Origin: Craspedostauros australis | Lineage: Eukaryota | DNA: 39,334 nt | Direction: 5' to 3' | Assembly (NCBI GenBank): GCA_030167865.1 | Contig: JALAGF010002881.1 | Location: forward strand, 1-39,334 | Shown here: piece after piece, positions 1 through 38,392 of the stretch | How positions within the stretch are numbered: the first letter of the stretch is position 1 | Layout: each line of letters starts with the position of its first letter | Translations under genes and position numbers: made by a program | Notes under the pieces: model-generated | Databases searched by the model: none | The model's input: only the letters and a program-made list of their open reading frames with translations | Told to the model about the DNA's origin: nothing

Positions 1-1819
1 GTGTTCAAAACAATTGCCTTTCTCACACAACTGTCTATTCAATCTGGAGGCTTCAGTCCATACCAAGTTAATTACTAGAGTCAAGAGTGATCCACATCCT
101 ATTGAATGCCACAATCACTTCATCGTATCGTTAACAGCTGCGCTGCCTTTTCGTAGACTACAGTATGCGTTCGACATTGGACTGACGAGCACAAACCAAA
201 CCCGAACGGGGTTTGTTGGTAGAACAGTGATACAACGTATTTTCCATAGAAATGACATATATGCATATTTCCCTCAACTCCCAGACAAAGGGCTCTAATG
301 TTCCACAGACAGATTGATGGCGTCCACGCCTCTGTTTATGTTCGTAACAACAATCCTTGTACCACGGACGCATGTCACAGTTTCGCTCACCAGAGTCAAG
401 CGTTTCCAGAATGTGCCCCGCCGACATCGTGTGCATGTTTGTGTACTTTCTCTCCCTTCGGTGGATGTTCATCAAAACCGGACGGAGGAGGGTTGCCTGG
501 CTCGCGAACCTCTCGGTGGTATTGAAAAAAGCACGATTGATGTTCTTCCTTGTCTCGCACAAAGCGAGATGCGTATCCAGGGCCAGTTGTGGTAATCATG
601 TCACTCGCATCTCCACACCTTTGCCCCACAAGATCTGGTGATGTGCACCGTGATGAGTACGTACGATGACCCAATCGCAGCAAAGAGCAGTGATTCAGAA
701 GCAGTCTGCAATTTCGATGGTATCACGTGCCAACCTTTTTGGACTCTCCGTCGCAGCGTGTTGGTACTGTCACGTCGGCGGAGGAGTACGACGCAGTCGC
801 AGGAGAAAAATGACGCGATTTGGAGACGGTATCAAACCCATACATGTGGAAACGCTTCCTGATCTGCTCTGTTCTGCTCACCAGGCATCCGGCTCAACCG
901 CTGTCCCTATTCAGACTGGTGGCGTGGTAATGACGGGAGCAGATATCGGAATCCAACTAACTTTCGGCACATTCGCATCTCGTGGTCATTCAGATGTTTG
1001 TTACGAGAATACGCCGTGGTATTTTACAATGCAAGCGTCAAGATCATACGTCTTTGCGCCCAAGGGAACAACCAAGGGTGAGCATAGTTGCAGAGAATGG
1101 TCAAGTCTCTCCTCTCCGTAGACCATAATCATCCAGCACCAAAACTGCAACCGAAATCCTCCCGCCACATGGAAGCCCGAAGTCGTCAGAAAATCCAAGG
1201 AGAGATCACGGTATCATTACGATGACACCACGAGTACATGCCGTGCTGGACGCGCATGGAAGTTCCAGCAACTCTCGGACCCACCAAAGCGCTGTGGCTG
1301 CTTTCGCTCGCCGAATGGAGCAAAGTATCCGCACATTGCAAGCAACCTCGTCTGCACCACACGTCCATGGCAGCAGAACGTGGTGGAACAGTTCTCCTCT
1401 TCGCCCCATTGGCTGGTTGACCTCATCCACTGCCACGAATCTGGAGAACTTCTGCTCAACTCTATCCTCCTTTGTAGAGATGAAGCACGAGATAAAAGGC
1501 TCAAGGAGTACCTCCAAACGTGGACAACAGATTCGGATCATGTCGATCCACGCATGGATGGACAGACGGAAAGCATCCATTTTGTTGGTTGGCTCATGCG
1601 ACCCAGCATCACAAACCCAAACCCTGGTTCCAAACCCAAAGATCGACACAACGCCAAGTGCGCACAACTCTGAGGGCGGCATCAAGTCAAGCATCCTCTG
1701 AGGAGCAACGCGACAACAACTATACCCATTCTCAAGATCCCTGCTGTAGCAAGAGCAGCAACCCCCACTAATACAATATATTTTAATATAGTGTAATATA
1801 TTATAATATAATAGAAAGG

Positions 1820-8206: not shown

Positions 8207-9463
8207 TCACCTCGAAGCACTGCGGCGGCCGCCGCCCGACCTGACCTTGCACAGCAGCTCCGCGCGAGACAGGTCCGAGTCGAAGTTGAAATCTTCCTGC
8301 CCATCCAGGATCTGGTACAGCTCGCGAATCGACATCTTCGAGTACTGATCGTTGCTGCTATCATCGCTGTTGCGCTTGCCGATGGAATAGTGGTGAATCT
8401 CCATCATGAGCCCGCTGCACTGCACCAAATCGGGAAAGTCAGGATGCTGCAACAAGCACGGCCACAGCTGCACCACGGCCGCCGTCGCGGATTCCTTGAG
8501 CAAGGCGCAATTCAACCCATCCGCGAGCAGCAGGAAGGCGATGCACGTGTCGTAGCTGAGATGATCATCGCACAGCCTCGTCTCGATCACCAGCTTCAGC
8601 TTGCAGCAACCGAACTGGTTGGCCACCACCAGCAAGGCCTGAAGATCCGAATGCGCCGCGTCGAGGTACGTCGTGTCCTGCGCGTACAGGAATCGCAGAA
8701 AGGCACGGAAGTGGACGGGGCGGATGTTGGGCAGCAGGATTTCTCGTGAAGCGTCCGATGCTGCTGCAGCGTCTTCCAACTGCATGCGTTCGGTTTGATG
8801 CGGGTTTATGCCATCGATGATGCCCTCCATGAGCGGCGCGGCGAAGAAGATGATCTCCGTGTTGGCTTTGATCGTCTCTTTCTCGCCGTCCTTGCCGACG
8901 ACGAATGCGATGTTCGTTCGGAATTGGTCCTCCAGATGCTTGAGGTAGCGTCTGTCCAGCGGAGTTGATGGCTTCCATCTCATGGGCGAAAGGATGCCGC
9001 CAGCCGCACCAACGTCATCTTCCACCTCGAGGCAGACGATGAACGTCAGGGTATCGTCGACGCAGCCTCTCCGAAGCACGTCCTTCCGCGGCGCGAAATC
9101 ATGCCACCCCCACGCGATCTGCGTTCTCGTCCTGTGGAAGGTGTGCGTGAGGGCTTCTTTCGTGATGCCCAAATGCTGGTTGGTGAAGGAGAACTTGACG
9201 GTGCACGCATCGGCCAGTTTCCATGAATCGACGTCGGCCCGCAGGTAGATGCTGACGGATGCCCGTTCATCGTCCACCACTTGACGATCTTCACCTCGGG
9301 GACCGAGCCACAGCTTCCATTTGAGGCCGTTGAAGTTGAAGGTGGGGGACACGGGGCCATCGGGCGGCCGGTGCTTCAGCTGCGAGAATTGGTGGAAGTG
9401 CACGGCGACCACCTCCCTGTTGAAGAGTGCGGGCGACGGATCGCCCAGCTGGACCATCTGCAT
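8207..9463 (-). CDS. MATH-BTB/POZ (SPOP/BPM-like) Cullin3 substrate adaptor with BACK-like helices and a C-terminal SAP/HeH-like motif
   Basis: MATH: SPTFNFNGLKWKLWLGPRG...VSIYL...AWGWHDF...DDTLTFIVCLEV. BTB: NIAFVVG...IKANTEII...ILLPNIRPVHFRAFLRFLY...LLVVANQFGCCKLKLVIE. BACK-like: FLLLADGLNCALLKESA. Start placed at ATG 9463 (ACAACG-ATG) within ORF 8207-9649. Confidence 0.88.
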   Translation of the reverse strand: MQMVQLGDPSPALFNREVVAVHFHQFSQLKHRPPDGPVSPTFNFNGLKWKLWLGPRGEDRQVVDDERASVSIYLRADVDSWKLADACTVKFSFTNQHLGITKEALTHTFHRTRTQIAWGWHDFAPRKDVLRRGCVDDTLTFIVCLEVEDDVGAAGGILSPMRWKPSTPLDRRYLKHLEDQFRTNIAFVVGKDGEKETIKANTEIIFFAAPLMEGIIDGINPHQTERMQLEDAAAASDASREILLPNIRPVHFRAFLRFLYAQDTTYLDAAHSDLQALLVVANQFGCCKLKLVIETRLCDDHLSYDTCIAFLLLADGLNCALLKESATAAVVQLWPCLLQHPDFPDLVQCSGLMMEIHHYSIGKRNSDDSSNDQYSKMSIRELYQILDGQEDFNFDSDLSRAELLCKVRSGGGRRSASR

Positions 9464-9490
9464 CGTTGTGGTGTGCTTGAACTTCTGCAG

Positions 9491-9522
9491 GAGTACGAGC
9501 ACGAGCACGAGCACGAGTACGA
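9491..9522. repeat. Hexanucleotide microsatellite (GAG[C/T]AC)x5 upstream of the MATH-BTB start
   Basis: gagtac gagcac gagcac gagcac gagtac ga is directly visible. Confidence 0.85.
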
Positions 9523-12500
9523 TCGGAGTGCTCTCTCGGCCTTCGTTGATTGGTTGTGGGAGCCGGTCGTGGTTCGATCCGCTGCGACTATGGCGTAGTA
9601 ATGAGCAGTTGTATGGTTCCTGCAGTCCGGAGAACCTCCACAGAAGCACTTGCCTCCTGTTCTTCGATCCGTTGGATCAATCCGGCAACGTGCACAGGAG
9701 AGACACAGGCGACGCGCCCACAACTCGTACCTCTCCTCATCCAACAGATGCTGGCGGCGGGGCAGCAGGCAGGTGATTGCAGAGGATGCTCGAAGGAGGT
9801 ATAGTGTCTCCAGCTCCTCGTTGGTCGCACGGCTGACGTTGTTGCATGTGTGTGCTTTTGATCATGGCGTTGATGGCCGCAACCACGTTTCAAACGAATC
9901 ACCACACAAGCAATCAAATTGAAAACCACGATTGACAATAGGAATCACGAATTGGGTTGCGAGTGAAAATAGAACTACATACTCAAATGATCATACTAGA
10001 AATGTCCGTTACGAAACAGCCCGAGGAGGTGGTGTCGACTGGTGTAAATGTAGGACGTTCTACATGCTCAGTCTTGATTGAGGAATCGCTTCCTCAATGT
10101 GGTGCGCGGATGCGTGAAGACGGATCGTGGGAGAAGGGCTGTTGGGCTTTACTTCGCCATGCCGATCTGTATTCGCGTCTTTGGCTGCACTTTCACACGC
10201 TTTGTGTGGATAGTTCGGTTTTATGTTGAACACTCGCGATTTCATCTGCCTTGATTTCCACAACAAGCGCGAATGCGGAATACCGGTGTCGGCGAACAGG
10301 TCATCGTTCGCACAAGACAGGACATTTCTCCTGAGCGTCGCGCGAGGTGACTATCGCAGCGCCCCATCTTCGAGTGCATCGCATCGCCTTCGACTTCACA
10401 GTCCATCACCTGTTCGCTGGACGGAAGGCAGCGAACACCCGAATCTGTTCATGTGGGCCACGTTTCCTTCACTCCTCTCCTGCCATGGCCAATCGCACCT
10501 TACGAGTACATGGTGGCGCTCTGTTGTTTGCCGTCGCGCAAATCCAACGGAAGATGCGGATGGACGAAAGATAGCCACGAGATGGACCAAGTTCTTGTAT
10601 TGTGCTGTATCGCATTGCATTGCAACTCACACGAATGTGCAGGTAGGCATAGCTCGTAGTACAACACAATGGGTGTCTATCCCTTCACCAGTAAAGAAGC
10701 TCAAATTCAGCCACACACAGATCAATAGTTCGCTGTTTGAAAGTCCAATGTCAATTTCAGTGCCAATGCTCCAGTGACACGGATGGGCGAGCAAAAGAAC
10801 GTTGGTGGAAGATATGCGCTTTGCAGAAACCAAACGGCTTTGCACGCCGAGGAATGATGATGTTGGCGCTTTGCGTTGCAGGCGCGACCTGTGGTTGATG
10901 CCATGCCTGTAGCAGGCCGCGAACCGAAGAATCGAGTGCCGCACACAGCACCATCTGGTACGAGTACGATTGCGAGGATGGTGGCACGACAGATTTTGGT
11001 TTTTGCCACAGAGCGCCTGTACGCTCCTTTAGCCGTGGGGCGGCAATGGACAGCGGTCACACATGCGAGTACTTGTGCGAAGAGGTACAGAGGCGCGAGC
11101 ACGCACTCGTGGCAGCGATAGCGACACAAGATCACAGAATCGCAGTCTTGTCCTTGATTGTTCGTCAAGACGAAGGGTTCTCCTTTGTGCTGCAGCGAAA
11201 CAGAAGCCACGAACTACTCGCAGAGAGCTCGGAGCCTTGGTGTATTTGCACCAACACACGTCACCTTGTTTGTGTCATTGGGCCAAGTTCTGGTCACGTT
11301 CTCATCTCGCCACAACACGATCAGCAATCATGGGCGCCTCAGTTGCTTAGTGGCACGAAAGCGACGTGCGCCTGTATGCTCCGTCCTCGCTATTCGTGGG
11401 ATGCTGAACACACAAGCAAAGCGCGAAGTGTCATCCATTCTGAAGTATGCGCGAGCTCAGCATGGGCGAGCTGTGGTGGCACAGGCCTCAGACCCAAATC
11501 AGTGCAACGGCACCGGTTGAAGAGACGATGCAGCAAACAGATCGGTTCCACTGCATGAGCCATTGAGTGCTCTGGAGTGTAAATACCTTCACAGAGGAGC
11601 ACATGAGACGGACAGGATCGCGTGGAGCCGCAGGACAGATCTAAGTGGCAGTTGTGACCATCACATCGAACGCAAACAACCCGTTTCACTGGTTTGATCG
11701 TGGTGAGATAGGCGCATCAATCCCCGCCAAAAGGTTGAGCAATTCATATCTTTTTGTTCCGACCGTTTCCCTCCATTCTACTGGCTCTGGAGAGGCTCTC
11801 TTGGCCGAACGCCATCAATGCGGGTTCTCGTGGGCAGCGACCAAACGTTGTGGCTCCGTCATGATGTCTGAGGCACGTCATCCGTTCCTTTCCTGGTGTT
11901 GCTGTGCGCGTCTGCAGTATCCCCCGTCTGTTGTACTTCTTGCGAAGCATCATCCCCGCGTCTTGTGGTTAGATGCTTTCGATACCTGCAGATAAAGAAT
12001 GCGCACGAGTAGCTCGTAATATTACACGTTCCATGGATGATGCCTCCGCACCCTGGAAGAACACCCACCACCACTGGTCTTTCTCTCGCATCCTTTGCTG
12101 GTCATGCGGTATCGTGTATGGAGGAGATCGTACTGCTACTCATGGGAAGGCACCTGGCCAAGGAGCAGGCGTGCTCTGTGCGAAGGAAGGGTTGAGCTTG
12201 TACTCGAGTTCGCTTGCCCGCGCTCTCTCTCCAGGATTTATGGGTCCCACAGCTAAGGCCACCTTTGTGAACAACGAGGAAGAAATTTGGACAGCCGCAT
12301 GTATCCACCATGAACATGGTAGGCGTACGGTGTGTATGTTGCTGAAAACAGAACAGGCGGTCCTGTCCCAGCGCACAACGTGGATGGCCTTGGCACATCA
12401 AGAACGCAGAGAGAGGGAGAGAGAGGAGGCCGCTCGGGATGGTCTTCTTCGCTCTGCCGTCTGTCCACAAAAGATTTATTGTCAGCTCACTTCGCGTATG

Positions 12501-18270: not shown

Positions 18271-18677
18271 GAGGCGCACAGCGAATGTTTTAAGCGGAAA
18301 GGAAAGCGAAAGCACGATCCAATCATGTTTGAGAAGCAAGAACATGTTCGGCCATGCGGGAAACAATCACGATGGTGTCAACGATTGTGTGTTTGGACAA
18401 CTCGTGCAAATCGGAGGACGTTGCAATCGCAAGAACTCGCGCCACGCGATCGTGACAACAAGGAAGGAAGAAGGGTAAGTGCGCCGATTGGATCATAATA
18501 ATGCAATCGCGTCTTCGCCTACACCGTTCACTCAGACTCACAAGATCATTGCGGAACAACATCGAGGAGCAACATCCAGCGACCAAGACATCAATTCTGT
18601 GCCACTTCTACTCTGAGCTATCCCATCCTATTATATTCTATTCTATAACACTTTGCTAGAGTAATTTCATCATCACC

Positions 18678-19421
18678 ATGCCATCAACTTCAGAGACAAT
18701 GCCATCAACATCATCACTGCCACCATCGGCACCATCAAACGACAAGACTGGCAAGGACGCCAGAACCATGCTGAAAGCATCGCCGAGGATCAGCATCAAA
18801 GGCACCGGCGATGTTTCCGTGCGCTCCTACTGCATCCCGGAAGAATTCATCTGCCCGCTGACTCTGGACATCATGCGAGAGCCGGTCGTCGATCGACTCG
18901 GCAACACGTACGAACGCGATGCCATCTTTGCGTGGATCCGGGATCATCGCACGTGTCCCATGACGCGGCGCAAGATGGGACCCAGGGACGTGATCCGCAA
19001 CCAGTTGCTGCGATCGCGCATCGAAAAATGGCGGGCGCAGCATGATCTGGAGGATGACGACGAAACCGACGACGACAGCGTTGATCAATGCTACGGCATC
19101 TTGGATGAGGGCGTCGATGGTGATGAGTGCAACAATGGCTCCAAGCTCAACACGAGGCCCAGACACCAGCGTGAACCGCAGATCCTCATCACGCTGCCGG
19201 AGAACTTTGTGGCACAGCACCGCAGCGGGGTTTTGAGCCCCAGCCGCAGCGGAATGCACGTGCACGAAGATGGGACACTGAATGTCGAATCGATCATTGC
19301 AACGCAGGGGGCCATCCGTGTGGTCCTCCCGTCCGACACCAGTGGAGAGTTGAGGCAGCCTCCATCCAATCGTCGTCGCCGTCGTTTCGCAGGCGTGTCA
19401 AAGCTCTTTCGCAAGAAGTAG
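18678..19421 (+). CDS. U-box domain protein (putative E3 ubiquitin ligase, 247 aa)
   Basis: Canonical U-box IPEEFICPLTLDIMREPV...GNTYERDAIFAWI...TCPMTR...NQLLRSRIEKW. CATCACC-ATG start context. Basic C-terminus (NRRRRRF...FRKK). Confidence 0.9.
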   Translation: MPSTSETMPSTSSLPPSAPSNDKTGKDARTMLKASPRISIKGTGDVSVRSYCIPEEFICPLTLDIMREPVVDRLGNTYERDAIFAWIRDHRTCPMTRRKMGPRDVIRNQLLRSRIEKWRAQHDLEDDDETDDDSVDQCYGILDEGVDGDECNNGSKLNTRPRHQREPQILITLPENFVAQHRSGVLSPSRSGMHVHEDGTLNVESIIATQGAIRVVLPSDTSGELRQPPSNRRRRRFAGVSKLFRKK

Positions 19422-20500: not shown

Positions 20501-20953
20501 GTTGCGAAGTATGATCACCTTTCACAACTGACGGAAGGGATGATCGACCTCCAACTTTGCGCGCTTCCTGCCTCTTCAGTGTGTTGCCTCTTCGGTTGTT
20601 CTTGGTCTCTTCCTTGTCGGCACCAAGTTTCGTTCCTTCTTTTCGTATCTTCGTTGGATCGACACTCTCGGACAACAGTCCGTTCGCGGTACTGAAAACA
20701 ATCGTGTTCAGTTTCGCGCCAAAACCAATTTGACCCAATCGACTCTATCATCATTGGTTCCTAGTTCACACAAACGAAGACAAAAAACGTCGACACCTGC
20801 TCCCAACACGATGTGCACAAAGATCGAGCCTCGAAGTGTTGGTGGTGTTGCAGTCCGACTGCGAGTCAGCACTGACCCACAATACCAGAGAGCGGTGTCT
20901 TTCTCATCGTTGCCGCACGCATTCCATTCAAACGACCAGCCGGAGCATCGACC

Positions 20954-23900
20954 ATGACATCTAGCAAGGACGCAAGCAGCAATGGCAACAGCAACAGCAA
21001 GGAGAAGAAGTCCTCCCGCGTGGGCGTCGCCGATTACTTCGGCATCGTCGGCATCGGTCAGAAGCTGGTGTGGATGCACGCGGAGAAGGACGATGAAGAG
21101 CAGCAGAAACAAACCAGCAGCAACAACGAAGAGGCCTTGCCCGTGTCCGCAGCGGATGGCGGCGGAGAGAATGAAGAGGCATGGTGGGAACGTTTCCATC
21201 GCGAGATCGTGGAGGTCGCCATCGTCACGGTCCGTGATAAGCCGCCCCCAATCCTGGAGCATCCGCCTCCTCCTGCTGCTGGAGCGTTCAGCAGGACCAT
21301 GTCCGTCCTCAATTCAAATGCCAGCAATGCAGGAGATGCTGCCATCAACAAACAGGATGCGAATCTCACTCATGCTCAACAACAGCAGCAGCAGCAACGA
21401 CAGCAGCAGATCATCACTTTGCCTTCCTGTGCCAGCACCGATCAGAATTCGTCCGTGGCGTCATTGCCTTCTCTCAGCAATGCGCATTCCACTTCGCATC
21501 TGCATGTGAATGTCCACGAGCAACAGCAACATCAATACCCGCACATCCGCGGCGCTGCATCCGATGTGACATCATTGACCGGTGGCACCGAGTACGACAT
21601 TACCATCGCGAGCAGCACGTCGGAGCATCAGCACTTCTATCAGGCCACGCCGGCTGGCACGACCACCAACCCGCTTGCGATTGATGGATGGACGGTGCTG
21701 TCGCAAACGCCAAAGGCGGGGTGGCAGGACAAGGTCGGGCCCCAGCTGTGGACGCAGTCGCAGATCTTTGACGCGAACCTCGATCCGATCAACGGCCTGC
21801 TGGGGCATTTCAGAACGGCCGAGGCGGAACTGCAGAAACAGATCGAGCAGCAACAGCAGCAGCAGCATGGGCATCGGAATTCCCACAACCATCGGCGTGC
21901 GCGATCTGGCGATACCTCCAGCAGCACGACGACCAACACCACGCCTCTCAAGGATCTGCGCCGGCGCATGCAGTCGGGATGGCCGAGGATGCTGCGCGAG
22001 GCTACGTTGGGACGGCTGGCAGTGCCCCAACCCAAGTTCTACCTCGCCTACCGACGCCGTGCCGCGACCGAAACGGATCGACCCGCCATCTCCAACCTCC
22101 GCATCTACTACGTCAAGCTGCACAAGACACTCGTCATCGCATCGGACATTGCCTCGCCTCTCGCTGCCGATCTCATGCCGCCCACACCATCCACGGTAGC
22201 CCCGGCATCAGTCACGAGCAAGGCGGCGTCCGTCATTTCCAGCGGCGCATCGTCCTTGCTGGGAGCCGCAGCCCTGGTCGGACGCGTCGCCAAGGCCGGT
22301 AAGCAGGTGGTGCGCGAACGTGTGCGATCGCAGCAGCATCCCGTGCCACCGAAGAACAACGACGAAACGTCCGCGCACGAGCCCCCGCAGCAGAAGACCG
22401 TCCCGCTTCATCTCTACCTCGGTTCACCGCCCGAAGAATTCGAGGAGTGGTGCATTCCGCCCGGGTATCAGCAGGTCAAGGTGCCGCCGGCTCCGACGTC
22501 GGCACTCGATGTCACGATCCCATCCTCCTCATCTTCTCTCGTCGGCATTGGCAGTGGGTCGTACTCCTTCTCCAACCCCGCAAGTCCATCGTCGCCGACA
22601 AGCCAAAGATCGCGGTATTCTCGCAACAGCACGCGCACCTTCCTCTTCCCTCCCGGCGATGACGCCACCGTGCTATCGGGCGGTTCCGGCGTTGGCGTCG
22701 AAGCAGTGGCAGACACCTCGCGTCCGCTGCACGAGGCCAGCCACGATATCCTGCCGCCGCATCTCGTCCTTCCCTCGCACATCCCCGCACCGCACGATAT
22801 CCATCACCTCAGCGCTCTCGACGATGACTTCTACCTCTATATTCCCATCGTGGCGACGAAACGGCAGAGGTTGGGCGACGAGGAGCGCTTTCATGAAGAT
22901 CCGGGGCTCGTGGATATCTCCGTCAGCTTCGTCAATCAGCTTGGCGAGTCCATATTTCCGGACGATTCCTACAGCTATGGCAGCATCCCGGACGAAGAGG
23001 AGGAAGAACTGAGCCCTGGCATGTTCTCCTTCCGAGGCAAGACCCCTTGGTCCGTGGCCCAGAGGCGTGGGCAGAAGGAAAGGGCGCTGCGGCATTTTGC
23101 GGAAACGGTCAGCGCCTTGCCATCGAAGCCCTTCTCCAAATCACCGAAATCAGAGCCAGTGCAGGTGGGCACACCGTCCTTGCTCGTACGCCACAATCTT
23201 CCATTTGGATTTTGCGACGCGCCGTTGCTGTCGCGCGTGCTGGATCGATTCCCAGACAAGAACTACAAAGGCCTGCCGTTGCCGCAGGAGGAACTGCCCA
23301 TGTTCTGCTATCCGACAGGCTGCCGTTTGCATCGTGCGCGTTTCAGCGAGGCTCCACTGCCGCAGTACTACGGATTCGTGCTGAAGAACGAGCAGGGCGA
23401 TTCCATCTACGTCTCCTGCATCTCCTTCATGGAACCGTTGACCCAGAACAAGCTGGAGCAGCTGAAGCGCGTATCCATTCGGCGTCAAGGCGTGTCGTTG
23501 CCGCATCGACGGTACTGGGAACGCCAGCGCTTCCTCAACCCGCAGAATCCTCAGGGCGGCGATTCCAACTTCCTCATGACAGGATTCGAGGACATGGCGA
23601 CATTCGAAAACAAGACCATCTGTTTGATCAGCCAGTATCCATTCTGGACCGCGTTCCATGACTTCCTCTCGCATTTGCACATCATGTCCGGATCGACGTC
23701 CGAGCTGCCGCTGGAACGATGCATCTCCCATCTCCTGCTGACCGCGCCGGTGCCCAAACCAGGTGGTCCCGCCATCCTCGTCCCGCTGCCGACCTTGAAC
23801 ATCCCCATGGTCATCGCGCAGCCAGCACTCAAGGATCTTCCGCTCGTGGATCTGCCATTCGAGAAGCTGGTGTCATGCTTGGGCATTCCCACCATCGTGA

Positions 23901-26900
23901 CCATCGTCTTGGGTTTCTTGGCGTTGGAGCGCAAGGTGATTGTCATCTCCACCAACCAGTCCTTGGTGCTGGAGGTGTGCGAGCTGCTGCGGGCATTGCT
24001 CTTCCCCTTCGAACTGTACGCTCCGTACGTGCCTCGACTCACCGAGACCTTCCGAGGTTGCATCGATTTCATGGGTCCCATCTTCGTTGGCATCCACGAC
24101 GACGGCACTACGGATGGCCTGGCAGCATACGCTCGCACCAACATGCCTGAAGATTCGATGATCGTGGACTTGGATCATGGCGTCGTGGATTGTCACAGCG
24201 ACAGCGACGCCGTCGGGAAGAATTCATGGGGTATCATCCCCGCCGTACCAAGGACGTCGCTGGTGTCGGAACTGGATACGCTGTGCCGTGACGCTGGCAT
24301 CATTCCAGGCAAGGGCCGCAAATCTTTGGATGCGATGGTGGATGGCACCTCTGATGTCATGGCACCAGATCCCTACGAAGGAAACCCCGATCGTCAATTC
24401 CACCATGAACCGCTTGATGATCGTGCAGTGCGTGACAGCTTCCTGCGATTCTTCTGCTCCATCCTCGGCGCGTACGAACGCTTCCTGGTGGTGCCCGACG
24501 TGGACTTTGCGACCAGCGGTAACGACTGGTTCGACGAGAAAGGATTCCTCGCATCGGTGACCGATGACAAGGCAGCCTTCCTGGGCCAATTCTGCTCCAC
24601 GCAGATGTTCCAATCCTTCATCCAACGGCGAACGGAGGCCAGCGACATCCGGTGCCTCTTCTTCGATGAATGTCTTGCCGAGTTCCACTCGACCACTGTG
24701 GCGTACGGGCGGCTCGGCGGTGACGTGGAACAGATACCAGCACCGGACAGCGACAGGGTGGAGATGTTGTACAGCCTCCTCGTCGACCAATCCAATGCGG
24801 GGTCAAGACAGCCGGCCCAGACGGTCGAGAACAAGAGCTTCGAGGTGGACTCCAAAGCAGGCAGCGACACGGACAGTAGCGTGCCGGCCAGCACGGCAGA
24901 ATCCTCTGCCAAAGCATCCGACATCGTCGTCAACCAGACCGGAGACTGGGTGACCGTCCCATCAGCGCAAGGCATCCAGAAAGGATCTCGTTTCATGTAC
25001 TGTCAGGATGGCAATCCATGCTTCCCCGACCGATTGAATACGAGCCTCTTCTTGCCGTCGGAACCGGGATCATGGCTTGTGGAGAAGAACCGCGTGTCCA
25101 ACCCTCAGCTAACCCGGACGGAGAAGGAGGTGGAGGAATGCGAGCGCCGTCGCAAGCAGGCGACCAGCTACAGAGGCTTGCAAACGCAACGTCGTTGTCT
25201 GTGGCAGTTGCCCAAGCTGATGGGATCGCACGTCCTGGGAACATGGCTGCTTTGCGTGCCAACCCAGATTGGGCAGGACGATTTGTCAAGCGATCAGCAA
25301 TCCACCTTCCTGTTGCGAGCGCTTGGTGCACTGCGTCAGCTCGGGAGCAAGCATCGCATTATCCCCGACGAGGCTGCGTACCGAGCCTTGATGGTTGCAT
25401 GCGGACGGACCCGGAACGATCGAAGGTTGGAGATTGTTCGCTTGTTCGAGTTTCTGCAATCGGATGGCATCCTTCCATCCGCCGTCACTCTTGGACAGTA
25501 CACGAAAGCATTGGCCGAAGGCCATTCGAAGGCCACGACCGGCACAAGCGAGGAAGTGCACGGCGTCGAGGTGACAGAATCAGCAAGTCGAGATTTGCGC
25601 ATCGGCAAGGGCAATTACGACGCGGAAGCTGTCCTTACCTGGATGGACACGAATCTTGCAGCGCTGGAAGACTCTGGCCGCCGATGGCGTCGAAGGAATG
25701 CATCGGACAGAGATGGCGGTGGTAACCAGCGCACCTTCGGAGGGACAAAGACCCAAGGAGGGCCCTCAACGTTAACATCGGGGACAGCGGGATCATCAGC
25801 CGTGCCCTTGTCCACGCAGCAGGTTGACAGCCGCATGAACACGAACAGCACGCTAAGCAGCAGCGGTGGTAGTGGCGTTCAGCTTCATACATCTGGCAGT
25901 TATGATCGGCACGCGAAGAAGCGCAGTTCCAACAGGAGCTGGTTGCCAGTGGTGTATTCGTCGTCCATCGTACCATCGCTGGAGAATGCACGAGGCGTCT
26001 CATTCTCGAATGACACCGTCGGGTTGGTTGCCATCTGGTCACGATGCAAGGTGTGCAACGCATGCGGGTACATTCCGTTGGAGGAAGAGGTGCAGGCTGG
26101 TTGGGACGTGCACGGAGGAGAACACAGCGAGATCCCCGGTGCCATTCACTGTCCACGATGTGGCCAGCTTTTTGTTCCGATGTTGGGTTACAAGACATTG
26201 ACGTTGGATGAAGCGATGAGCGCAGATGCCAACAATGATGCATCTGCCCACAGCAGCAGCGGCGGCAACGGCACAGATGGCAGCAGGAATGGAGGCATCG
26301 CCGACTTTGGAGAATTGCCACCCCAGATCGGTCCCACCGTGGAGGAATCGGACGCATCGTACGTGACGTATGTGAGCCCACCGTACATGCGTCGATCGTT
26401 GGAACGGTACATCGCCGAGCATGGTGAGGACGTGCTGGATCGCGACCACATGCAGAAGCTGGACCCCGAGCTGTTCTACAACTTTTGGTGGTACTGCGCG
26501 CGCTTTTCGTTGCCGTTGCCCTTCCCTGTGGCACAGCGCAACGCACCGAAGCATCTGATGGCATTTGCCGCATGGGATCGGGAGGTTGCGGTCGGTGGAT
26601 GCACAAGCTGCGCCAAAGCTTTGGAACCTTTCCTGGTGCGACCCTCAAAGCAACAATTGGATGACGACGACAATGGCGATATTGCTACCCGACAGGCGAT
26701 GGATGCCATGGACAGCTTTGAATCCTTCGATGGAAACCCGCTGCTATCGCGATTCGATCTGAAGGACTTCTACCCGAACGTGTGGGACCATCCCGACATG
26801 TCGCAGATCCTGGTGCTGCTCGTGGAGGCCTGCGAAACACGCGACTTCAAGGCCGTCGTGGAATGCGTGATGCGCTGCAACGCCCGTCGACAGCAGCAGT

Positions 26901-27274
26901 ACGGCACTGCCGCAGCAACGAACGGCAGCGATGTCGGCATCGGCACGACGCAGTATGGCATGCTGATGAACGCATCCTTCGAGCAGCAGCAGCAGGCTAC
27001 CGCCAACACGCAGCACGAACTGGACTGCTACCGCACCGTGCTGTACCTGGCCAAGTACCAGTGCGCCTCGGCCTTCCATGCCTTCTTCCCGACGACATTG
27101 AAGGCCTGCAAGGGGTACCATTTCTGGTGTCCCAACGCGCTGCTGCCCATCTTCGATCGGTTGATCCGCGAGGCGGTGAAGCGGCTGCGTGCCAAGGATA
27201 ACACCTACACGCCGCTGCAGGACGTGTCGGAAGTTGCTCTGGGATTCCGGTGCGTATTTGGACATTTGATTTGA
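20954..27274 (+). CDS. DENND4: DENND4/Crag-like DENN-domain Rab GEF (MABP-like remnants, uDENN-cDENN-dDENN, PPR, Cys cluster and conserved C-terminus)
   Basis: Uninterrupted 2106-aa ORF. uDENN: VLDRFPDKNY...LPMFCYPTG. cDENN: LPLVDLPF...LERKVIVIS...LLFPF...YVPRL. dDENN: VRDSFLRFFCSILGAY...FCSTQMFQSFIQRR. PPR: PDEAAYRALMVACG...GILPSAVTLGQYTKAL. Also C..C....EEEVQAGW...CPRC...FVPML and YVSP...LFYNFWWY...LP, as in animal DENND4. Confidence 0.88.
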   Translation: MTSSKDASSNGNSNSKEKKSSRVGVADYFGIVGIGQKLVWMHAEKDDEEQQKQTSSNNEEALPVSAADGGGENEEAWWERFHREIVEVAIVTVRDKPPPILEHPPPPAAGAFSRTMSVLNSNASNAGDAAINKQDANLTHAQQQQQQQRQQQIITLPSCASTDQNSSVASLPSLSNAHSTSHLHVNVHEQQQHQYPHIRGAASDVTSLTGGTEYDITIASSTSEHQHFYQATPAGTTTNPLAIDGWTVLSQTPKAGWQDKVGPQLWTQSQIFDANLDPINGLLGHFRTAEAELQKQIEQQQQQQHGHRNSHNHRRARSGDTSSSTTTNTTPLKDLRRRMQSGWPRMLREATLGRLAVPQPKFYLAYRRRAATETDRPAISNLRIYYVKLHKTLVIASDIASPLAADLMPPTPSTVAPASVTSKAASVISSGASSLLGAAALVGRVAKAGKQVVRERVRSQQHPVPPKNNDETSAHEPPQQKTVPLHLYLGSPPEEFEEWCIPPGYQQVKVPPAPTSALDVTIPSSSSSLVGIGSGSYSFSNPASPSSPTSQRSRYSRNSTRTFLFPPGDDATVLSGGSGVGVEAVADTSRPLHEASHDILPPHLVLPSHIPAPHDIHHLSALDDDFYLYIPIVATKRQRLGDEERFHEDPGLVDISVSFVNQLGESIFPDDSYSYGSIPDEEEEELSPGMFSFRGKTPWSVAQRRGQKERALRHFAETVSALPSKPFSKSPKSEPVQVGTPSLLVRHNLPFGFCDAPLLSRVLDRFPDKNYKGLPLPQEELPMFCYPTGCRLHRARFSEAPLPQYYGFVLKNEQGDSIYVSCISFMEPLTQNKLEQLKRVSIRRQGVSLPHRRYWERQRFLNPQNPQGGDSNFLMTGFEDMATFENKTICLISQYPFWTAFHDFLSHLHIMSGSTSELPLERCISHLLLTAPVPKPGGPAILVPLPTLNIPMVIAQPALKDLPLVDLPFEKLVSCLGIPTIVTIVLGFLALERKVIVISTNQSLVLEVCELLRALLFPFELYAPYVPRLTETFRGCIDFMGPIFVGIHDDGTTDGLAAYARTNMPEDSMIVDLDHGVVDCHSDSDAVGKNSWGIIPAVPRTSLVSELDTLCRDAGIIPGKGRKSLDAMVDGTSDVMAPDPYEGNPDRQFHHEPLDDRAVRDSFLRFFCSILGAYERFLVVPDVDFATSGNDWFDEKGFLASVTDDKAAFLGQFCSTQMFQSFIQRRTEASDIRCLFFDECLAEFHSTTVAYGRLGGDVEQIPAPDSDRVEMLYSLLVDQSNAGSRQPAQTVENKSFEVDSKAGSDTDSSVPASTAESSAKASDIVVNQTGDWVTVPSAQGIQKGSRFMYCQDGNPCFPDRLNTSLFLPSEPGSWLVEKNRVSNPQLTRTEKEVEECERRRKQATSYRGLQTQRRCLWQLPKLMGSHVLGTWLLCVPTQIGQDDLSSDQQSTFLLRALGALRQLGSKHRIIPDEAAYRALMVACGRTRNDRRLEIVRLFEFLQSDGILPSAVTLGQYTKALAEGHSKATTGTSEEVHGVEVTESASRDLRIGKGNYDAEAVLTWMDTNLAALEDSGRRWRRRNASDRDGGGNQRTFGGTKTQGGPSTLTSGTAGSSAVPLSTQQVDSRMNTNSTLSSSGGSGVQLHTSGSYDRHAKKRSSNRSWLPVVYSSSIVPSLENARGVSFSNDTVGLVAIWSRCKVCNACGYIPLEEEVQAGWDVHGGEHSEIPGAIHCPRCGQLFVPMLGYKTLTLDEAMSADANNDASAHSSSGGNGTDGSRNGGIADFGELPPQIGPTVEESDASYVTYVSPPYMRRSLERYIAEHGEDVLDRDHMQKLDPELFYNFWWYCARFSLPLPFPVAQRNAPKHLMAFAAWDREVAVGGCTSCAKALEPFLVRPSKQQLDDDDNGDIATRQAMDAMDSFESFDGNPLLSRFDLKDFYPNVWDHPDMSQILVLLVEACETRDFKAVVECVMRCNARRQQQYGTAAATNGSDVGIGTTQYGMLMNASFEQQQQATANTQHELDCYRTVLYLAKYQCASAFHAFFPTTLKACKGYHFWCPNALLPIFDRLIREAVKRLRAKDNTYTPLQDVSEVALGFRCVFGHLI

Positions 27275-28942: not shown

Positions 28943-29110
28943 TGGATCATATATGCGGAGAAATGCCAATTTCTCCGAATGGCCTCGCGCGCCAAAACAG
29001 AATCAATTGTCTCCGAAACAAGGATGAGACATTCATCACCAAACGCTCACAACAAACAGTTAGTTGACCTCAATCAACACCACCGCTTTCAGCACCGACT
29101 CCAATCCATC

Positions 29111-29272
29111 ATGTGCCATCGAACACAGTGCTCCAGATGCGGCAAGGCCACCTGGGTTGGGTGCGGCATGCACATTGAGCAGGCGCTCAAAGGTGTCAAG
29201 GAGGAGGATCGCTGTCCCAATTACAAGCACTACTTCTCTTTGACATCATGCACGAGCAAGTTGGAGAAATAA
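29111..29272 (+). CDS. 53-aa Cys/His-rich microprotein (MCHRTQCSRCGKATWVGCGMHIEQAL...DRC), putative metal-binding
   Basis: Internal ATG (CCATC-ATG) of ORF 28979-29272 after an A/C-rich leader. Motif C-x4-C-x2-CGK-x-TW-x-GCG-x-H...RC matches a small uncharacterised family I recall from fungi and actinobacteria. Confidence 0.75.
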   Translation: MCHRTQCSRCGKATWVGCGMHIEQALKGVKEEDRCPNYKHYFSLTSCTSKLEK

Positions 29273-29537
29273 CCGAAGGCGAACCATCATCCGTACCTGG
29301 GGTTCGTCCAAGTGGACAATGAGAGCGCGCTCGAGAAGTCACCAAGCAGAGTGATCATCTCATCTATCCACAGCACAGCCAGGTCATCTCACTCTCTCTT
29401 TATCACATCTTTCAGTTCAGCGTTAACAACCTACTATACTTTAGTGCAGTATATTACTATCATCTTGCAGTACCATACATTACTTTTACTACAACAGTAT
29501 CAGTCTCAGTAGGATAGTAATTAGACTCTCTAGAACT

Positions 29538-32051
29538 CTACTCCACGTTGATGGAATGCTTCGTCGCCGTTCCGACAATGATGCGGCGCATCTTGGACGC
29601 CATGCGCAACGTGCATGCCGTGTTCTGAATGTCTTCTGGCTCGGAGCTCACGCATGCGAGGACGATCACCTTCGTGTCGGCCTCCAGGTTGTCGCGCAGC
29701 AGGTGCGTCAGGGTGGAATTGCGGTACGGGACGGTTCGCACGAACTGGCTGCGGGCCGTCACCACCTGGCTCAGCGTCTCCAGCGAACGGTTGGCGAACT
29801 TCCATTCCTTGCTGTTGCCAATGCCCGCGAGCATGGCCTCCGGAGTGGACGGTCGCTTGTCCTTGCCCAGCTTACGCGATGTCACGTCCGATCCGGCCAG
29901 GTCAACGAATTGGATCTTGCCGCACGTCGTCGTCTGCGTCGTCGTGTTGGATGAGACGATCTTCATGGTCGCGATCAGGTGGCTCGACGCCTCGTACTCC
30001 GTCGCATCGATGCCCTGCTCCGCAAGCCTTGCGGCTCGCTGATTCAGGCACTGGTGCCACAGCTCCATCAGATCGTCGAAACTGGAGACTTCGACAGTCA
30101 GCAGTCCTTGCACGACCGTCTCGCCGTTGTGATTCGTCTTGATCTCCAGCTTGGCGGTAGGCGATCCCTGCACATCTTCACCTGTCTCCGTGCGCTTCTT
30201 CGGCTTCCTCCTCAGCTCCTCGTTCGTGACCTTGCCCTTCGAGTCACCGACTGGCGTGCCCGCGATACCATCGCAGAGGCGCTCGTCGTGCACCTCGATG
30301 ATGCTCATGGTCACCGTGTCCTTGTACCGCTCCGTGCGACGCGCAATCACAGCGAACAGCTGCTCGGCGTACTGCAGATGCACTCCGAAGTTGTTGATCG
30401 TCGTCTTGAACGTATCGTCAACGTCTCTCACCGTGCAAGCATCGCCAAAGATCGTGTGCGTCTTGCCGGCGCTGTTCTGTCCGTGCGCCAGTACGCAGAC
30501 GTTGAAACCATCCAGGGCGCTGAGACAAATGGACTCCACCTCGTTGTACACGTCCGACTGGTTCATCTCATCATCAAAGACTCCGTCGAATTCAAAGCTG
30601 AGGGGGAAGGTATTCACGAAGCCATTGTCACTCTGCATGGGGAATCGATCCCTGTGAAGCAGCAGCAACTCACGCGACGGTACGGACACAGTGGAATTCG
30701 GCTGGTCTCCCGATGGTCGTGGACGGCAATAAACACGTACCGCACCACGCAGATCCTGCACTTCATGCTGCAACTTCCTCCGCAGCGTATTCTCTTTCGC
30801 GAGTTTCTCCTTGAGTCGTTTTATGTCGCGTTGTGCTGCCTTGTCACCCTCCTTGATATCGGCACCTGCACCGATAGACAATTGCTGGCCGCCATGTTCA
30901 AAGGCCTTGATGCGCTCGTGCACCTTTGATGGGGATGATGCTCCCTCGTTTGGGGATAGCTGATGTCTCAGTGTTTCCGTGAGCTGCGTGGATTTCATCT
31001 TCTCGCTCTGCAAGGCCTCCTCAATGATGGCACGTTGAATCTCGGCAGCGGCAGCCCTGGTTTGCAATTCGCCAGCTTCCTCCTCGGCCTTCTCCGCCTG
31101 CTGCTTCCAGTACGTCGCGCTCTTGCGTTCCGCCTCCAACCGCTCCTCGGCCTTGCGCTGCTTCGTCATTGCCTCGGCGGATCGTTTCTGCGCCAGCGCC
31201 GCTGCTTCTGCTGCCTTGTGCGTCACCGTGGAGTTCCAGTCCTTCGCCGTCGAGTTCTCAGCAGATTGAATGGCCTGCTCAGCAACCTTCACAGCTCTGG
31301 CTGCCTCTGCTCTCGAATCCTCCAGCTCGGCACGCAGCTCCGTCAGCGCCTGATGAAGCTCCTCCACGATCTCCTGGTCAAATCCTGCTCCTGTGAGCGA
31401 AGACACCGCGCTGCCCTCATCGGCCACATTGTCGGCCCCGCTATTGGCCGTTTGCGATTGTGATGTTTTGGTGGTGACAACCGCCTGCGACCGTGTGGAC
31501 GTGTGCTGAGATGAATGCAATTTTGATAACGATGATGGCATATTCTTGAGGACGCGTGCCTGGTTCTGGGCTTGTGGTTGCTGCGGTGCTTGCGCAACCT
31601 GCGCTTGCTGGTCGGGCTGGGATCTTGGCGCTGCCGCTGCCACCGCATTGAGGGCTGGCACGTCGCCGCGCAATAACGACTGCGCGGCTGTGATATTGGA
31701 TTGAATCTGGTTGATGACGTGCCGGTCGTCGACAAGGTTGTCCGCTCCTTGCTGCTTCATCCTCGGCCCTGGCGGGAGCTGCGATCTGGCTTGCGACGTC
31801 GCCTTGGACTGCAGATGGTCCGATGAACTAATGCGAGCATTGGGTGCGGTTGTGACCATCGGCAGCGGAGCATTGGAGGATTCTTTGACGTTGATGCCGG
31901 ATCTCGGAAGCGACGGTGGTGTGTTCTGCGAGAGCGCTCGGTTTGCGCTGGTCGCAGTCATCTTTTCAGGTACCGAAGAGGATGTGGAAAAGCGCTTCGC
32001 CGTTGCCGCCGATTTGCTTGATTCTGCATGTTTGTAGCAGCAATTCCCCAT
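29538..32051 (-). CDS. Kinesin-like protein with C-terminal motor (kinesin-14-like) and coiled-coil stalk; terminal exon 32023-29538, or a stand-alone 837-aa ORF from ATG 32051
   Basis: Kinesin-14 neck RRKLQHEVQDLRGAVRVYCRPRP, FEFDGVF, SALDGFNVCVLAHGQNSAGKTHT, IEVHDE, GKIQFVDLAGSD, VPYRNSTLTHLLRDNL. Long Ala/Glu coiled coil upstream. Confidence 0.9.
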   Translation of the reverse strand: MGNCCYKHAESSKSAATAKRFSTSSSVPEKMTATSANRALSQNTPPSLPRSGINVKESSNAPLPMVTTAPNARISSSDHLQSKATSQARSQLPPGPRMKQQGADNLVDDRHVINQIQSNITAAQSLLRGDVPALNAVAAAAPRSQPDQQAQVAQAPQQPQAQNQARVLKNMPSSLSKLHSSQHTSTRSQAVVTTKTSQSQTANSGADNVADEGSAVSSLTGAGFDQEIVEELHQALTELRAELEDSRAEAARAVKVAEQAIQSAENSTAKDWNSTVTHKAAEAAALAQKRSAEAMTKQRKAEERLEAERKSATYWKQQAEKAEEEAGELQTRAAAAEIQRAIIEEALQSEKMKSTQLTETLRHQLSPNEGASSPSKVHERIKAFEHGGQQLSIGAGADIKEGDKAAQRDIKRLKEKLAKENTLRRKLQHEVQDLRGAVRVYCRPRPSGDQPNSTVSVPSRELLLLHRDRFPMQSDNGFVNTFPLSFEFDGVFDDEMNQSDVYNEVESICLSALDGFNVCVLAHGQNSAGKTHTIFGDACTVRDVDDTFKTTINNFGVHLQYAEQLFAVIARRTERYKDTVTMSIIEVHDERLCDGIAGTPVGDSKGKVTNEELRRKPKKRTETGEDVQGSPTAKLEIKTNHNGETVVQGLLTVEVSSFDDLMELWHQCLNQRAARLAEQGIDATEYEASSHLIATMKIVSSNTTTQTTTCGKIQFVDLAGSDVTSRKLGKDKRPSTPEAMLAGIGNSKEWKFANRSLETLSQVVTARSQFVRTVPYRNSTLTHLLRDNLEADTKVIVLACVSSEPEDIQNTACTLRMASKMRRIIVGTATKHSINVE

Positions 32052-32211: not shown

Positions 32212-32313
32212 AAGTACTCGTGCTGCACTGCACTGCATGTTGCTGCTGTTGAGCTGCGGAGTCGTCCACGGTTTCTGGGATTTTTCGTGCCTGTTTCCTC
32301 TCAAACATTCGGG
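32212..32313 (-). CDS. Possible small internal exon (ARMFERKQARKIPETVDDSAAQQQQH...), 96 or 102 nt
   Basis: A 77-nt intron at 32390-32314 (G|GTACGT...TGTATAG|) joins in phase 1. Candidate phase-1 donors at 32217 (GTACTT) or 32211 (GTATGA). Confidence 0.45.
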
Positions 32314-32390: not shown

Positions 32391-33806
32391 CTCTGAGCAT
32401 GGGATGTGATGGCGTTCCATCGGAACGAACCGACCGCATATCATCACCTTCCATGGGGACATCGAGGAACCTTGCAAAAGCACGCGCGAACTTGTCGCGG
32501 TCCACCTTGGTGGGTGCCTCAATGTCGAGCGATGCGTGGGCTGGATCGTCGGTGATGAGAGAGAGGATGCGGGATGCTGGACAGGTGTTGCGTCGTGCGC
32601 GTTCGGTGGTCTTGCCCTTGCGGACGCAGACGAATCGTTCCACCGGCATGCGCACATCCTTCTTCTTCCCCCAGGTGAGGACCTTCTTTTTGCCTGCCTT
32701 GTTGCTGTTGAGGTAGTCTCGGTTGGACAGGGATTCCGTCTCGGAGCGATCTCTCTGAACCGACCTCCTGGAGAAGGTGGTGAAGCCGCTCCTGCTGACG
32801 CGGGAGCTGACGGAACGCGTCGTGGAATGCATGTCATGCTCAAGCTCGTAGGCGTCCATCCAGCAGCACTTGACGTAGCGCAGGTTGGATTTGCCGTTGT
32901 GATTGATCTTTCGAACAGCCACACCGTAGGCATCCTCACACAATCGCTGCTCAAAGAGCGCTTGCTCCTGATCGTCTGGGTCGGCCGAATTCCGCCTCGG
33001 CATATTTCCAACCAGTGAAGCCTGCGAGGGTGTCCCGAAGCTGTTGTTGCCGTTGCTCATGCCGCTCTGGATACTGCTCTGAACGTTGCTGGAGGTCGGC
33101 AGATGCTGCTGCTGTTGTTGTTGCTGACGTTGCTGAGCCATGCGCTGCCATTCGTCCGTTGTGTCGGCCATCACTGTGCTGGGTTTGACGGTGCCGGACG
33201 AGACAGGAACCGAAGCTTGGTTGAGGAGTGTGTGTGGGTGCGGATCGCGCATTTGTGCAGGGTGGTCGTTGGTGATTGTGCTGATGTGTGGCACTTTCAA
33301 GTTGTGTTTGTTGGCTGCGTTGTTGGATGCGATAATGGCTTGCCTTTGGAGCCTGGCCCTCGTTGGTGTTCTGCCGTGGTTGATACCGTTGAAGTTGCCG
33401 CTGTTGCCGAGGATGGCGCTGCTGGTACTTTGTCCGAAGTTGAAGCCTGTATCTCTGGGGTTGCGTGGTAGCGCTCTGGGTGGTGTGGATGATGCGATGC
33501 CCCTGGCCTTTGGTGATGTGCCAGTTGCTGTTGCTGTTGCGGTTGTCGATGAAGATGGAGGCGATGGCGATAATGTTGATGACGCTGTTGGTAAAGCTTC
33601 TCCTTGTTCTATTGACCTCAAATTCTGTTGCTGTTGTTGCTGTTGCTGTAGCTTCGGTCGCGGAGGTGTTCCTGAACGCGAAAGAGATGTCGACGATGGG
33701 TTTGGCGTCGGTTTGGGAAGAACTGCTGGAGGCACAGATGAATGCGAGGCCGTTGGGGCTGTTGGTATCGTCGTTGGTGCTTCCGCTGATGCCGGTGTTG
33801 ATGCTC
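32391..33806 (-). CDS. Exon encoding a low-complexity region and a PLC/Mcp5-type PH-like domain (probable upstream exon of the kinesin locus)
   Basis: Acceptor CCACAG| at 33807 and donor AG|GTACGT at 32390, both phase 1. PH-like: GVAVRKINHNGKSNLRYVK...LTWGKKK...FVCVRKGKTTE...RILSLI...SLDIEAPTKVDRDKFARAFARFL. Confidence 0.75.
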
Positions 33807-37339: not shown

Positions 37340-38392
37340 TTACTCCTCCATTACGCTATTCAGTTCCTCCAATAGTCTCTCACGCAATCTCATCCGAGTC
37401 AGCTTTCGTTCAACTACTGGAACGGGGTCGAAGAGAGGAGAACCTCCAACTAGCTCAATTTGCGTAATGGTGGCAACAGAGGCAAAGGCAAGAACGTGTT
37501 TGTCAGGATCGTGTCGCCACACATTTCTCAGGCAGGCCCAGTGCTTGATGCGTCGGTTAACAGTTTCGTGTCTCGCACGGAGTATTTTGTCAGTGATGTA
37601 CTTGGGACCCAAAACGCGTTCATCCCCGACGTAACCTTTGTCGGCGACAACAACTTCGCCGTCAGTCAACTGGTTCTTTAAACCAAACCGAAAGATGCTG
37701 ATGTCATTCCACATGCCACAAGGAAAGGGTCCATTGGTCCACACGATGTCACCACCAGTAATTGACAGGGCGATCTCATACCGAACGCCTGGGCCCGAGA
37801 ATTTTGGCGAAAACCATCCCTCTGTGAACGGTTGGGGCTCTTGAATTCGCATGTCAACTCCGTCAACAGTGACAAGCGCTTTGTCCTCTGGCGACGCTTC
37901 ACGAAACCGATTGGGCCAGTGAATCTGCAACAATGAGGAAGCAATTGGCGTTCTGTTAGTGGTTCGCTTATTGAAGTGAATGGAACATGAAAGAAACATT
38001 TAGGATCGCATTCGACAACTTACCACATTGTGCTTGACTCGGGCTATGATGTCCAACACGATCCAGACCCATTTGCGGAGAGTGGTGCGATTTGTCCTCA
38101 ACCACGATGACAAAATGGTTTCCGTGGCGTACTGTTTTAGAAACGCTGCAGCCCACATCAGGTGCTTTGGGCATAAGTCATGCCGAAATAGTCCTGCTGC
38201 TCCAATTTCATTCCACAGCGTGTGTATCACTGTCCCTGAAGTGCCAAAAAACGAGTGGAAGATTCGTTGATTGTCCGTTGCGTTGGCATGTCGTTGGATG
38301 TCATCAAACCCAGTGTTGATGCCAATAATGGACCAGCCCAACCAGTCGAAGGTTCCAACTGGGAGTGCATAAGGAGGGAGTTGATCTGCCAT
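37340..38392 (-). mobile_element. PIF/Harbinger(ISL2EU)-type DDE_Tnp_4 transposase, two exons (38392-38024, 37924-37340), ~317 aa
   Basis: Catalytic motifs VTVDGVD, VVADKGYVG and RARHETVNRRIK; also WFSPKFSGPGVRYEIAL...GDIVWTNGPFPCG.WNDI.IF. The N-terminal exon has an HTH-like region (KHLMWAAAFLKQYATE...RTTLRKWVW). Canonical 99-nt phase-0 intron GTG|GTAAGT...TTGCAG|ATT. GC is lower than in host genes. Confidence 0.88.

Follow-up and report, generated by a model that had tools for sequence, protein, structure and literature searches.

A diatom kinesin-14 with degenerate switches and an upstream PH domain as a candidate non-motile tether between membranes and microtubules

Contig JALAGF010002881.1 of Craspedostauros australis, analysed over its whole stretch of 39,334 nt (the window), carries a kinesin-like gene on its minus strand which, on the sequence evidence, codes for a real and conserved pseudokinesin under purifying selection. 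The protein belongs to the kinesin-14s, its two catalytic switches are degenerate throughout a whole family of homologs, and it is predicted to carry a PH domain ahead of the motor-homology domain. We propose, with confidence that does not go beyond an even balance, that this diatom-wide protein acts as a non-motile tether connecting membranes rich in anionic lipids to microtubules. The original prediction for this DNA had described the gene as a retained, hydrolysis-deficient kinesin-14 rather than a decaying copy. This view is supported by the family-wide loss of the switch salt bridge, the purifying selection and a tree position inside the kinesin-14s, the loss of ATPase activity being deduced from the altered motifs.

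The kinesin-like gene consists of one stop-free frame of 920 codons (32300–29538), whose C-terminal part up to the stop codon represents the motor-homology domain (30746–29538). It matches the Pfam family Kinesin (PF00225) with an E-value of 1.3e-54 and 185.9 bits at a cut-off of 29.3, and its closest solved relatives are the kinesin-14s KCBP, KIFC3, Kar3 and Ncd. The predicted motor model (predicted local distance difference test score, pLDDT, 89.6; predicted template modelling score 0.88) adopts the kinesin fold, with KCBP as top match (E 2.8e-28). The P-loop GQNSAGKT (30482–30459) and the switch II motif DLAGSD (29903–29886) were found exactly as originally described, and the microtubule-binding L12/alpha5 element VPYRNSTLTHLLRDNL (29732–29685), which had been called intact, lies inside the same frame. 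Switch I reads TEYEASSH and lacks the Arg as claimed, while its position (30002–29979) is shifted by three bases from the approximate range first given. Its loss is also wider than reported, as none of the four conserved residues of NxxSSR (the Asn, the two Ser and the Arg) survives in the alignment with KCBP; the same alignment places an aliphatic residue right after switch II. NxxSSR is strictly conserved across the kinesin alignment presented in PMC5076506, and the salt bridge linking R203 to E236 is described as universally conserved and catalytically activating (PMC4383081). Of the three motifs expected of an active motor, the window protein retains the P-loop pattern GxxxxGK[T/S], whereas it shows neither the NxxSSR of switch I nor the DxxGxE of switch II, where Asp replaces Glu.

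Homologs were obtained from a first search, for which the best 120 of 833 matches were listed (46–58% identity), and from three further searches. Out of 314 proteins, the motor was matched by 197 and fully covered by 189 (185 distinct); the latter served as alignment set, and eight partial or very divergent rows, including two Leptocylindrus-type proteins, were excluded. The 189 rows share kinship, and the following counts do not represent 189 independent events. The switch I Arg is present in five of the 189 homologs (one of the 120 in the first set), the Asn in three and the first Ser in one. The Glu of switch II is conserved in eight and replaced by Asp in 151, and its Gly is present in 84, with Ala or Ser in the other 105. 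No homolog combines the Arg with the Glu (0/189), and none combines the Gly with the Glu (0/189). When six catalytic features were scored, 69 homologs kept none, 98 kept one, 22 kept two, and none kept more. The pattern of the window gene recurs across the family, which the originally suggested comparison of orthologs was meant to test, and ATPase activity would be expected to be lost in the entire family.

Other parts of the domain are well preserved. The P-loop pattern is present in 181 of the 189 homologs, the Asp of switch II in 182 and the Asn of helix alpha4 in 158, this Asn being followed by Lys or Arg in all 120 proteins of the first set, and the R-x-R-P adenine motif is kept. The mean column conservation was highest in L12/alpha5 (0.92), the best-conserved segment of the family, followed by the neck (0.84), compared to a domain-wide mean of 0.59 and a value of 0.45 in switch I. 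The L12/alpha5 motif occurs letter for letter in two intact kinesin-14s (L078 and L080). A Lys-to-Thr change in L12 had been considered as a sign of lost microtubule binding, as it looked specific to the family in comparison with the kinesins of its own genome; we dropped this argument because L078 and L080 share the change. One further family member (L084) shows a frame which jumps from the middle of the motor to the C-terminal motif and omits both switch regions, representing either a deletion or an assembly artefact.

The ratio of nonsynonymous to synonymous substitution rates (dN/dS), proposed as a second check, amounted to 0.03–0.13 in the 14 usable pairs (dS of 0.05–1.5) out of 861 pairs from 42 distinct coding sequences; as a counterweight, these 14 pairs represent about five clusters, none of which contains the window gene, whose own pairs are saturated. 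Because the switch loss is family-wide and dN/dS is this low, the gene represents neither decay nor a sequencing error. Such an explanation would have nothing in its favour beyond the altered motifs themselves, and besides the data on the homologs it conflicts with the unbroken frame of 920 codons and with a contig of run X1 which shows no difference to the window over 29460–29944; this contig spans switch II and not switch I, and possibly derives from the same sample. We regard error or decay as refuted by the homolog data and give it practically no chance.

The region upstream of the motor was modelled as a separate piece of 196 amino acids (32991–32404), which is, by its predicted structure, a PH domain of the PLC-delta type. 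AlphaFold yielded a mean pLDDT of 81, with low confidence only in a disordered insert (residues 60–93, approximately) and in the tail, and the model shows the seven-stranded sandwich and C-terminal helix that define the PH superfamily. The top match in Foldseek was the PH domain of PLC-delta (1mai, E 9e-5), to which the model aligned in VIA-align with a Z-score of 11.8 and a root-mean-square deviation of 3.4 over 111 residues. Toxoplasma ISP1 and the glideosome-associated connector (GAC) followed with Z-scores of 11.3 each, PLC-gamma was likewise within one Z unit, and 18 chains reached a Z-score of at least 8, nearly all of them PH domains by title. At the sequence level, the piece showed no match in Pfam and none in the PDB other than a single chance hit at E 1.2. 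Residues K28, K34, R38, W107, K127, R165 and K167 are invariant in all 45 homologs compared and K109–K111 are present in 41–42 of them; the domain has a conserved basic patch, and its core a net charge of +15. To judge from their spacing, K28 and R38 may mirror the phosphate ligands of PLC-delta, whose basic ligand residues are located on beta1/beta2 and beta3. A search of the Atlas with the full-length homolog P0055 returned generic kinesin clusters only. Two short and divergent proteins (P0228 and P0240) match only the PH domain (41% identity) and may be fragments or a separate PH-only relative.

The gene is thus larger than originally noted; the open reading frame was correctly taken as intact, and the PH domain and a conserved Ala-rich region had been missed. 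In our splice model, exon 1 (35218–34333) codes for a poorly conserved, low-complexity N-terminus in an open frame and ends with a phase-1 GT donor (GTACGT), by which it is joined in frame to exon 2 over a GT–AG intron of 526 nt (34332–33807). Exon 2 (33806–32391) lies in an open frame extending over 34362–32314 and codes for a low-complexity linker and the PH domain, with homolog matches at approximately 32400–33050. This region is matched, in addition to the motor, by 47 of 50 homologs of at least 950 amino acids, in an upstream frame different from that of the kinesin. A predicted second intron of 367 nt (32390–32024, model D) joins the PH exon in frame to the kinesin exon; an alternative acceptor shortens it to 220 nt (32390–32171, model A). 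The two models give unbroken proteins of 1595 and 1644 amino acids, respectively, and the intron region appears non-coding in all three frames in a small codon model. Another model with two introns and a donor at 32212 (model B) was rejected because it introduces a stop codon.

Among the homologs, PH domain and motor are found in the same polypeptide in 98 of the 99 proteins with at least 600 amino acids ahead of the motor. Of 49 family loci from metagenomes, 37 have the PH domain upstream of the motor; these comprise all 27 loci for which 2600 nt or more of upstream DNA is available, and 13 of the 37 carry both in one unbroken frame. These data bear on the alternative that C. australis has two separate genes, one for the PH exon and one for a kinesin starting at the in-frame ATG at 32051. 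A 77-nt GT–AG intron (32390–32314) would indeed end the PH protein at 819 amino acids, and the sequence behind the ATG (32051–32037), located in the predicted intron or linker, reads MGNCC and resembles a myristoylation/palmitoylation signal. We consider separate genes highly improbable, since two simple splice models yield the full fusion, the MGNCC stretch scores as non-coding, the long homologs are nearly all fused, and no MGxCC motif was present among the 314 fetched proteins; MGNCC probably occurs by chance.

All taxonomically named homologs are from diatoms, ranging from centric to raphid pennate species. They include members from Leptocylindrus, Cyclotella, Stephanocyclus, Cyclostephanos, Thalassiosira, Odontella, Asterionellopsis, Thalassionema, Seminavis, Cylindrotheca, Nitzschia, Epithemia and Amphora, and one with a truncated, Chaetoceros-like label. 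The family is likely restricted to diatoms, as judged from the named homologs, which are a minority of the rows. In a tree of 24 rows, it forms one clade on a long stem (1.63) within the kinesin-14s, from which the non-14 kinesins split off with support values of 96/93. Its sister at 95/88 is L078, a KIFC3-like kinesin which is intact and shares the L12 and C-terminal motifs of the family; an earlier tree of 29 rows without L078 likewise placed the family on the kinesin-14 side. The C-terminal position of the motor behind a kinesin-14 neck agrees with this assignment, and the family would derive from a KIFC3-like kinesin-14B. The tree also agrees with the published label of the orthologs from two model diatoms, Phatr_13169 and Thaps_38555, which are listed as kinesin-14B with low Pfam scores of 165.9 and 122 in the survey of Wickstead et al. 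2010 (PMC2867816). In the survey rows compared (16 of 24 for Thalassiosira, 30 of 90 for 14B), their architecture is given as motor domain only and no comment on catalysis was found; their aligned sequences in the supplement show the signature motifs of the family when matched by eye.

The gene is present as a single copy in its own genome, and own-genome searches retrieved no second PH domain or Ala-rich region. The other kinesin loci of the genome show mostly canonical switches, and at some of them no motif was picked up. Three of these loci (L002, L003/L008 and L007) are of the kinesin-14 type with canonical or near-canonical switches; L007 (G000:C5169) has a mildly changed switch I (SSRGH) and an intact switch II. 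At another locus (L021, G000:C2287), the raw frame continues with non-canonical residues after the DLAG of switch II, which may be due to an intron boundary.

Between PH domain and motor, the kinesin frame contains an Ala-rich region (31442–30942) which does not belong to any Pfam family and is probably a coiled coil, as judged from its composition. It is present in all 99 long homologs with 60–78% identity to most of them, and is more conserved than the motor (about 50%). The lineage of the window gene does not contain approximately 100 amino acids of coiled coil which follow this region in most homologs. Directly ahead of the motor lies a kinesin-14-type neck helix (30860–30747), which aligns with the necks of Ncd, Kar3 and KCBP and is predicted as a single long helix. 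The strong conservation of the neck would also fit a partner subunit of the Vik1/Cik1 type, which would pair through its neck with an active kinesin-14 and thereby provide a moving minus-end motor with a PH domain for membrane cargo. The three kinesin-14-type genes mentioned above would be available as partners in C. australis, and Kar3 is reported to be processive only with a non-catalytic head (PMC4338441). We regard this alternative as improbable, because the only 14B entry among the 15 P. tricornutum rows of the 2010 survey is the member of this family itself, leaving no active sister of that subfamily in evidence there, and because in the tree no intact relative is closer than L078, which is not a kinesin of the same genome. 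A heterodimer prediction of neck and motor with L002 scored 0.28, compared to a mark of 0.34, and does not count for either side.

The proposed tether would be laid out as a disordered N-terminus, a basic PH domain, a linker, a conserved helical region, the neck and the motor-homology domain. The PH domain would bind a phosphoinositide or another anionic lipid, and the Ala-rich region and neck would serve for dimerisation or for the recruitment of a partner. The motor-homology domain may hold a nucleotide in its P-loop, yet would be unable to close its switches and to hydrolyse ATP, and would hold on to microtubules via L12/alpha5 and alpha4 in a static or diffusive manner. The binding of nucleotide, lipid and microtubules, the dimerisation and the membrane involved, which may be the plasma membrane, the silica deposition vesicle or the Golgi, are all inferred.

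Several observations weigh against this interpretation. The basic residue following switch II is replaced by Leu, Val or Ile in 184 of the 189 homologs, the Tyr of strand beta4 is kept in only 24 and the Glu of alpha4 in 94; because of this erosion, the affinity for microtubules may be weak. Switch I shows an alternative conserved pattern (Tyr or His, then Glu or Asp) in 162 of the 189 proteins, which together with the Asp of switch II could represent a rewired chemistry. As for the PH domain, PH clusters came up in a feature search of the Atlas only below 0.9, many domains with this fold have protein ligands, and with ISP1 and GAC within one Z unit of 1mai the structural match does not point to one particular lipid. 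Finally, the splice connecting PH domain and motor in C. australis is itself a prediction.

Two further alternatives were considered. In the first, the protein is a dead and membrane-bound scaffold whose head has given up microtubule binding and is directed towards proteins or actin, for example in organelle anchoring. It has to be weighed because the plant proteins KAC1 and KAC2, reported without ATPase activity and without microtubule binding (PMC3472504, PMC3402901), are a precedent for a kinesin-14-like head that has abandoned microtubules altogether. The lost residues after switch II and in beta4 would fit, as would the Leptocylindrus-type members (P0230, P0271, P0232 and P0239), in which the P-loop and most of helix alpha6 are also gone, but which still have PH domain and Ala-rich region along with a part of L12. 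To judge from their motifs, these members are a further step of decay inside the same family. Against such a scaffold stands the microtubule contact L12/alpha5, which is the most constrained element and identical to that of intact kinesin-14s, together with the conserved alpha4 Asn and its basic neighbour; we therefore consider it possible, although unlikely. The second alternative assumes a slow or rewired ATPase, in which a non-canonical switch confers nucleotide-gated microtubule affinity or slow motility. The retained P-loop, adenine motif and switch II Asp, the conservative replacement of Glu by Asp and the presence of an Arg anywhere in the switch I window in 33 of the 189 homologs would be consistent with it. 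We consider it very unlikely, as switch I is the least conserved of the motifs, more than half of the homologs have Ala or Ser instead of the switch II Gly, and no invariant basic residue in switch I compensates for the missing Arg.

Diatom silica morphogenesis is thought to need microtubules which membrane-associated bridging proteins attach to the silica deposition vesicle (PMC3478156), and the protein described here, single-copy and found across the phylum, is built like a bridge of this kind between membrane and microtubule. It is tempting, if rather doubtful at present, to go further and to assume that an ancestral diatom turned a KIFC3-like kinesin-14B into a dedicated PH-pseudokinesin which fastens microtubules at the silica deposition vesicle or at the plasma membrane next to it, providing one of the long-postulated bridges between membrane and cytoskeleton that place and shape the growing valve, from Leptocylindrus to the raphid pennates. 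Neither the text nor the searched supplements of PMC3478156 and PMC9894196 contained the identifier 38555; as their lists are subsets and the old gene model may be truncated, this has no bearing on the function. Because orthologs exist in two genetically tractable diatoms (Phatr_13169 and Thaps_38555), tagging and knockout experiments are feasible now. The family appears to be an independent pseudokinesin lineage with graded loss, ranging from the switches only to the switches and the P-loop, and should help in studying the role which a kinesin head plays in the absence of hydrolysis. Its existence will be surprising for specialists of the cytoskeleton and is directly testable in model diatoms, the function being an inference.

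Several other genes are recognisable in the window. Approximately 2 kb from the kinesin gene, a frame of 2132 codons (20876–27274, plus strand) contains uDENN, DENN and dDENN domains of the Rab guanine nucleotide exchange factor type, and a Cys/His-rich open reading frame of 47 amino acids (29081–29221, plus strand) without a Pfam match is convergent with the kinesin gene, the contig of run X1 covering the DNA just downstream. Further frames match eIF2B-epsilon (1787–4261, plus), MATH (8207–9676, minus) and U-box (18660–19421, plus), and a fragment of a DDE_Tnp_4 transposase is located at 37340–37999 (minus). A search of the window against Rfam gave no matches.

The diatom protein shares features with several known systems. 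Like KIF1A/UNC-104 (kinesin-3), in which this combination couples lipids to microtubules, it carries a PH as well as a kinesin domain on a single chain; those proteins are active plus-end motors with an N-terminal motor and a C-terminal PH domain, whereas the diatom protein shows the reverse order, belongs to the kinesin-14s and is dead as a motor by its motifs. Costal2 and KIF26A/B (kinesin-11) are divergent kinesins working without motor activity, KIF26A reportedly lacking ATPase; they belong to other families, carry N-terminal motors and serve as signalling scaffolds, and are not known to contain a PLC-type PH domain. Vik1 is not known to have a nucleotide site, a feature not shared by the window protein and 181 of the 189 homologs, the site being lost only in the Leptocylindrus-type members. 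Among the comparisons offered in the original prediction, Vik1 fits less well than the KIF26/Costal2 type, and also less well than KAC, because the diatom protein keeps its P-loop and has a membrane-type domain of its own. Vik1 and Cik1 are obligate partners of Kar3, whereas most members of the diatom family retain the P-loop and have a PH domain in addition. They resemble the diatom protein in that a neck coiled coil is followed by a motor-homology domain of the kinesin-14 type which is non-catalytic (PMC4338441). Cos2 is described as acting without motor activity (PMC2867816).

KAC1 and KAC2 (class V kinesin-14) are similar in their kinesin-14-like head, and their lack of detectable ATPase and their part in holding an organelle at the plasma membrane parallel what is proposed for the diatom protein. 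They differ in acting via actin without binding microtubules, whereas in the diatom protein the microtubule-binding loop is retained and a PH domain is present; our tree did not contain KAC sequences, and an origin independent of KAC is an assumption. The PH domain has been listed as an animal kinesin domain absent from the kinesins of photosynthetic eukaryotes, in a survey which also describes diatom gene models as poor (PMC1434745). The PH domains of PLC-delta (1mai), ISP1 and GAC are the top structural matches of the diatom model; they share only 11–22% identity with it, and the diatom domain differs by its long disordered insert. Both pseudokinesins and kinesins with a PH domain have been described before. 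The fusion of a dead kinesin-14B head with a PH domain across the diatoms was not found in the open literature searched, although an earlier mention in subscription journals or bioRxiv supplements is possible. In its neck, C-terminal motor, fold and L12 motif, the diatom protein resembles the KIFC3/KCBP-like kinesin-14B proteins, from which it differs by the loss of the catalytic switches and by its N-terminal PH domain.

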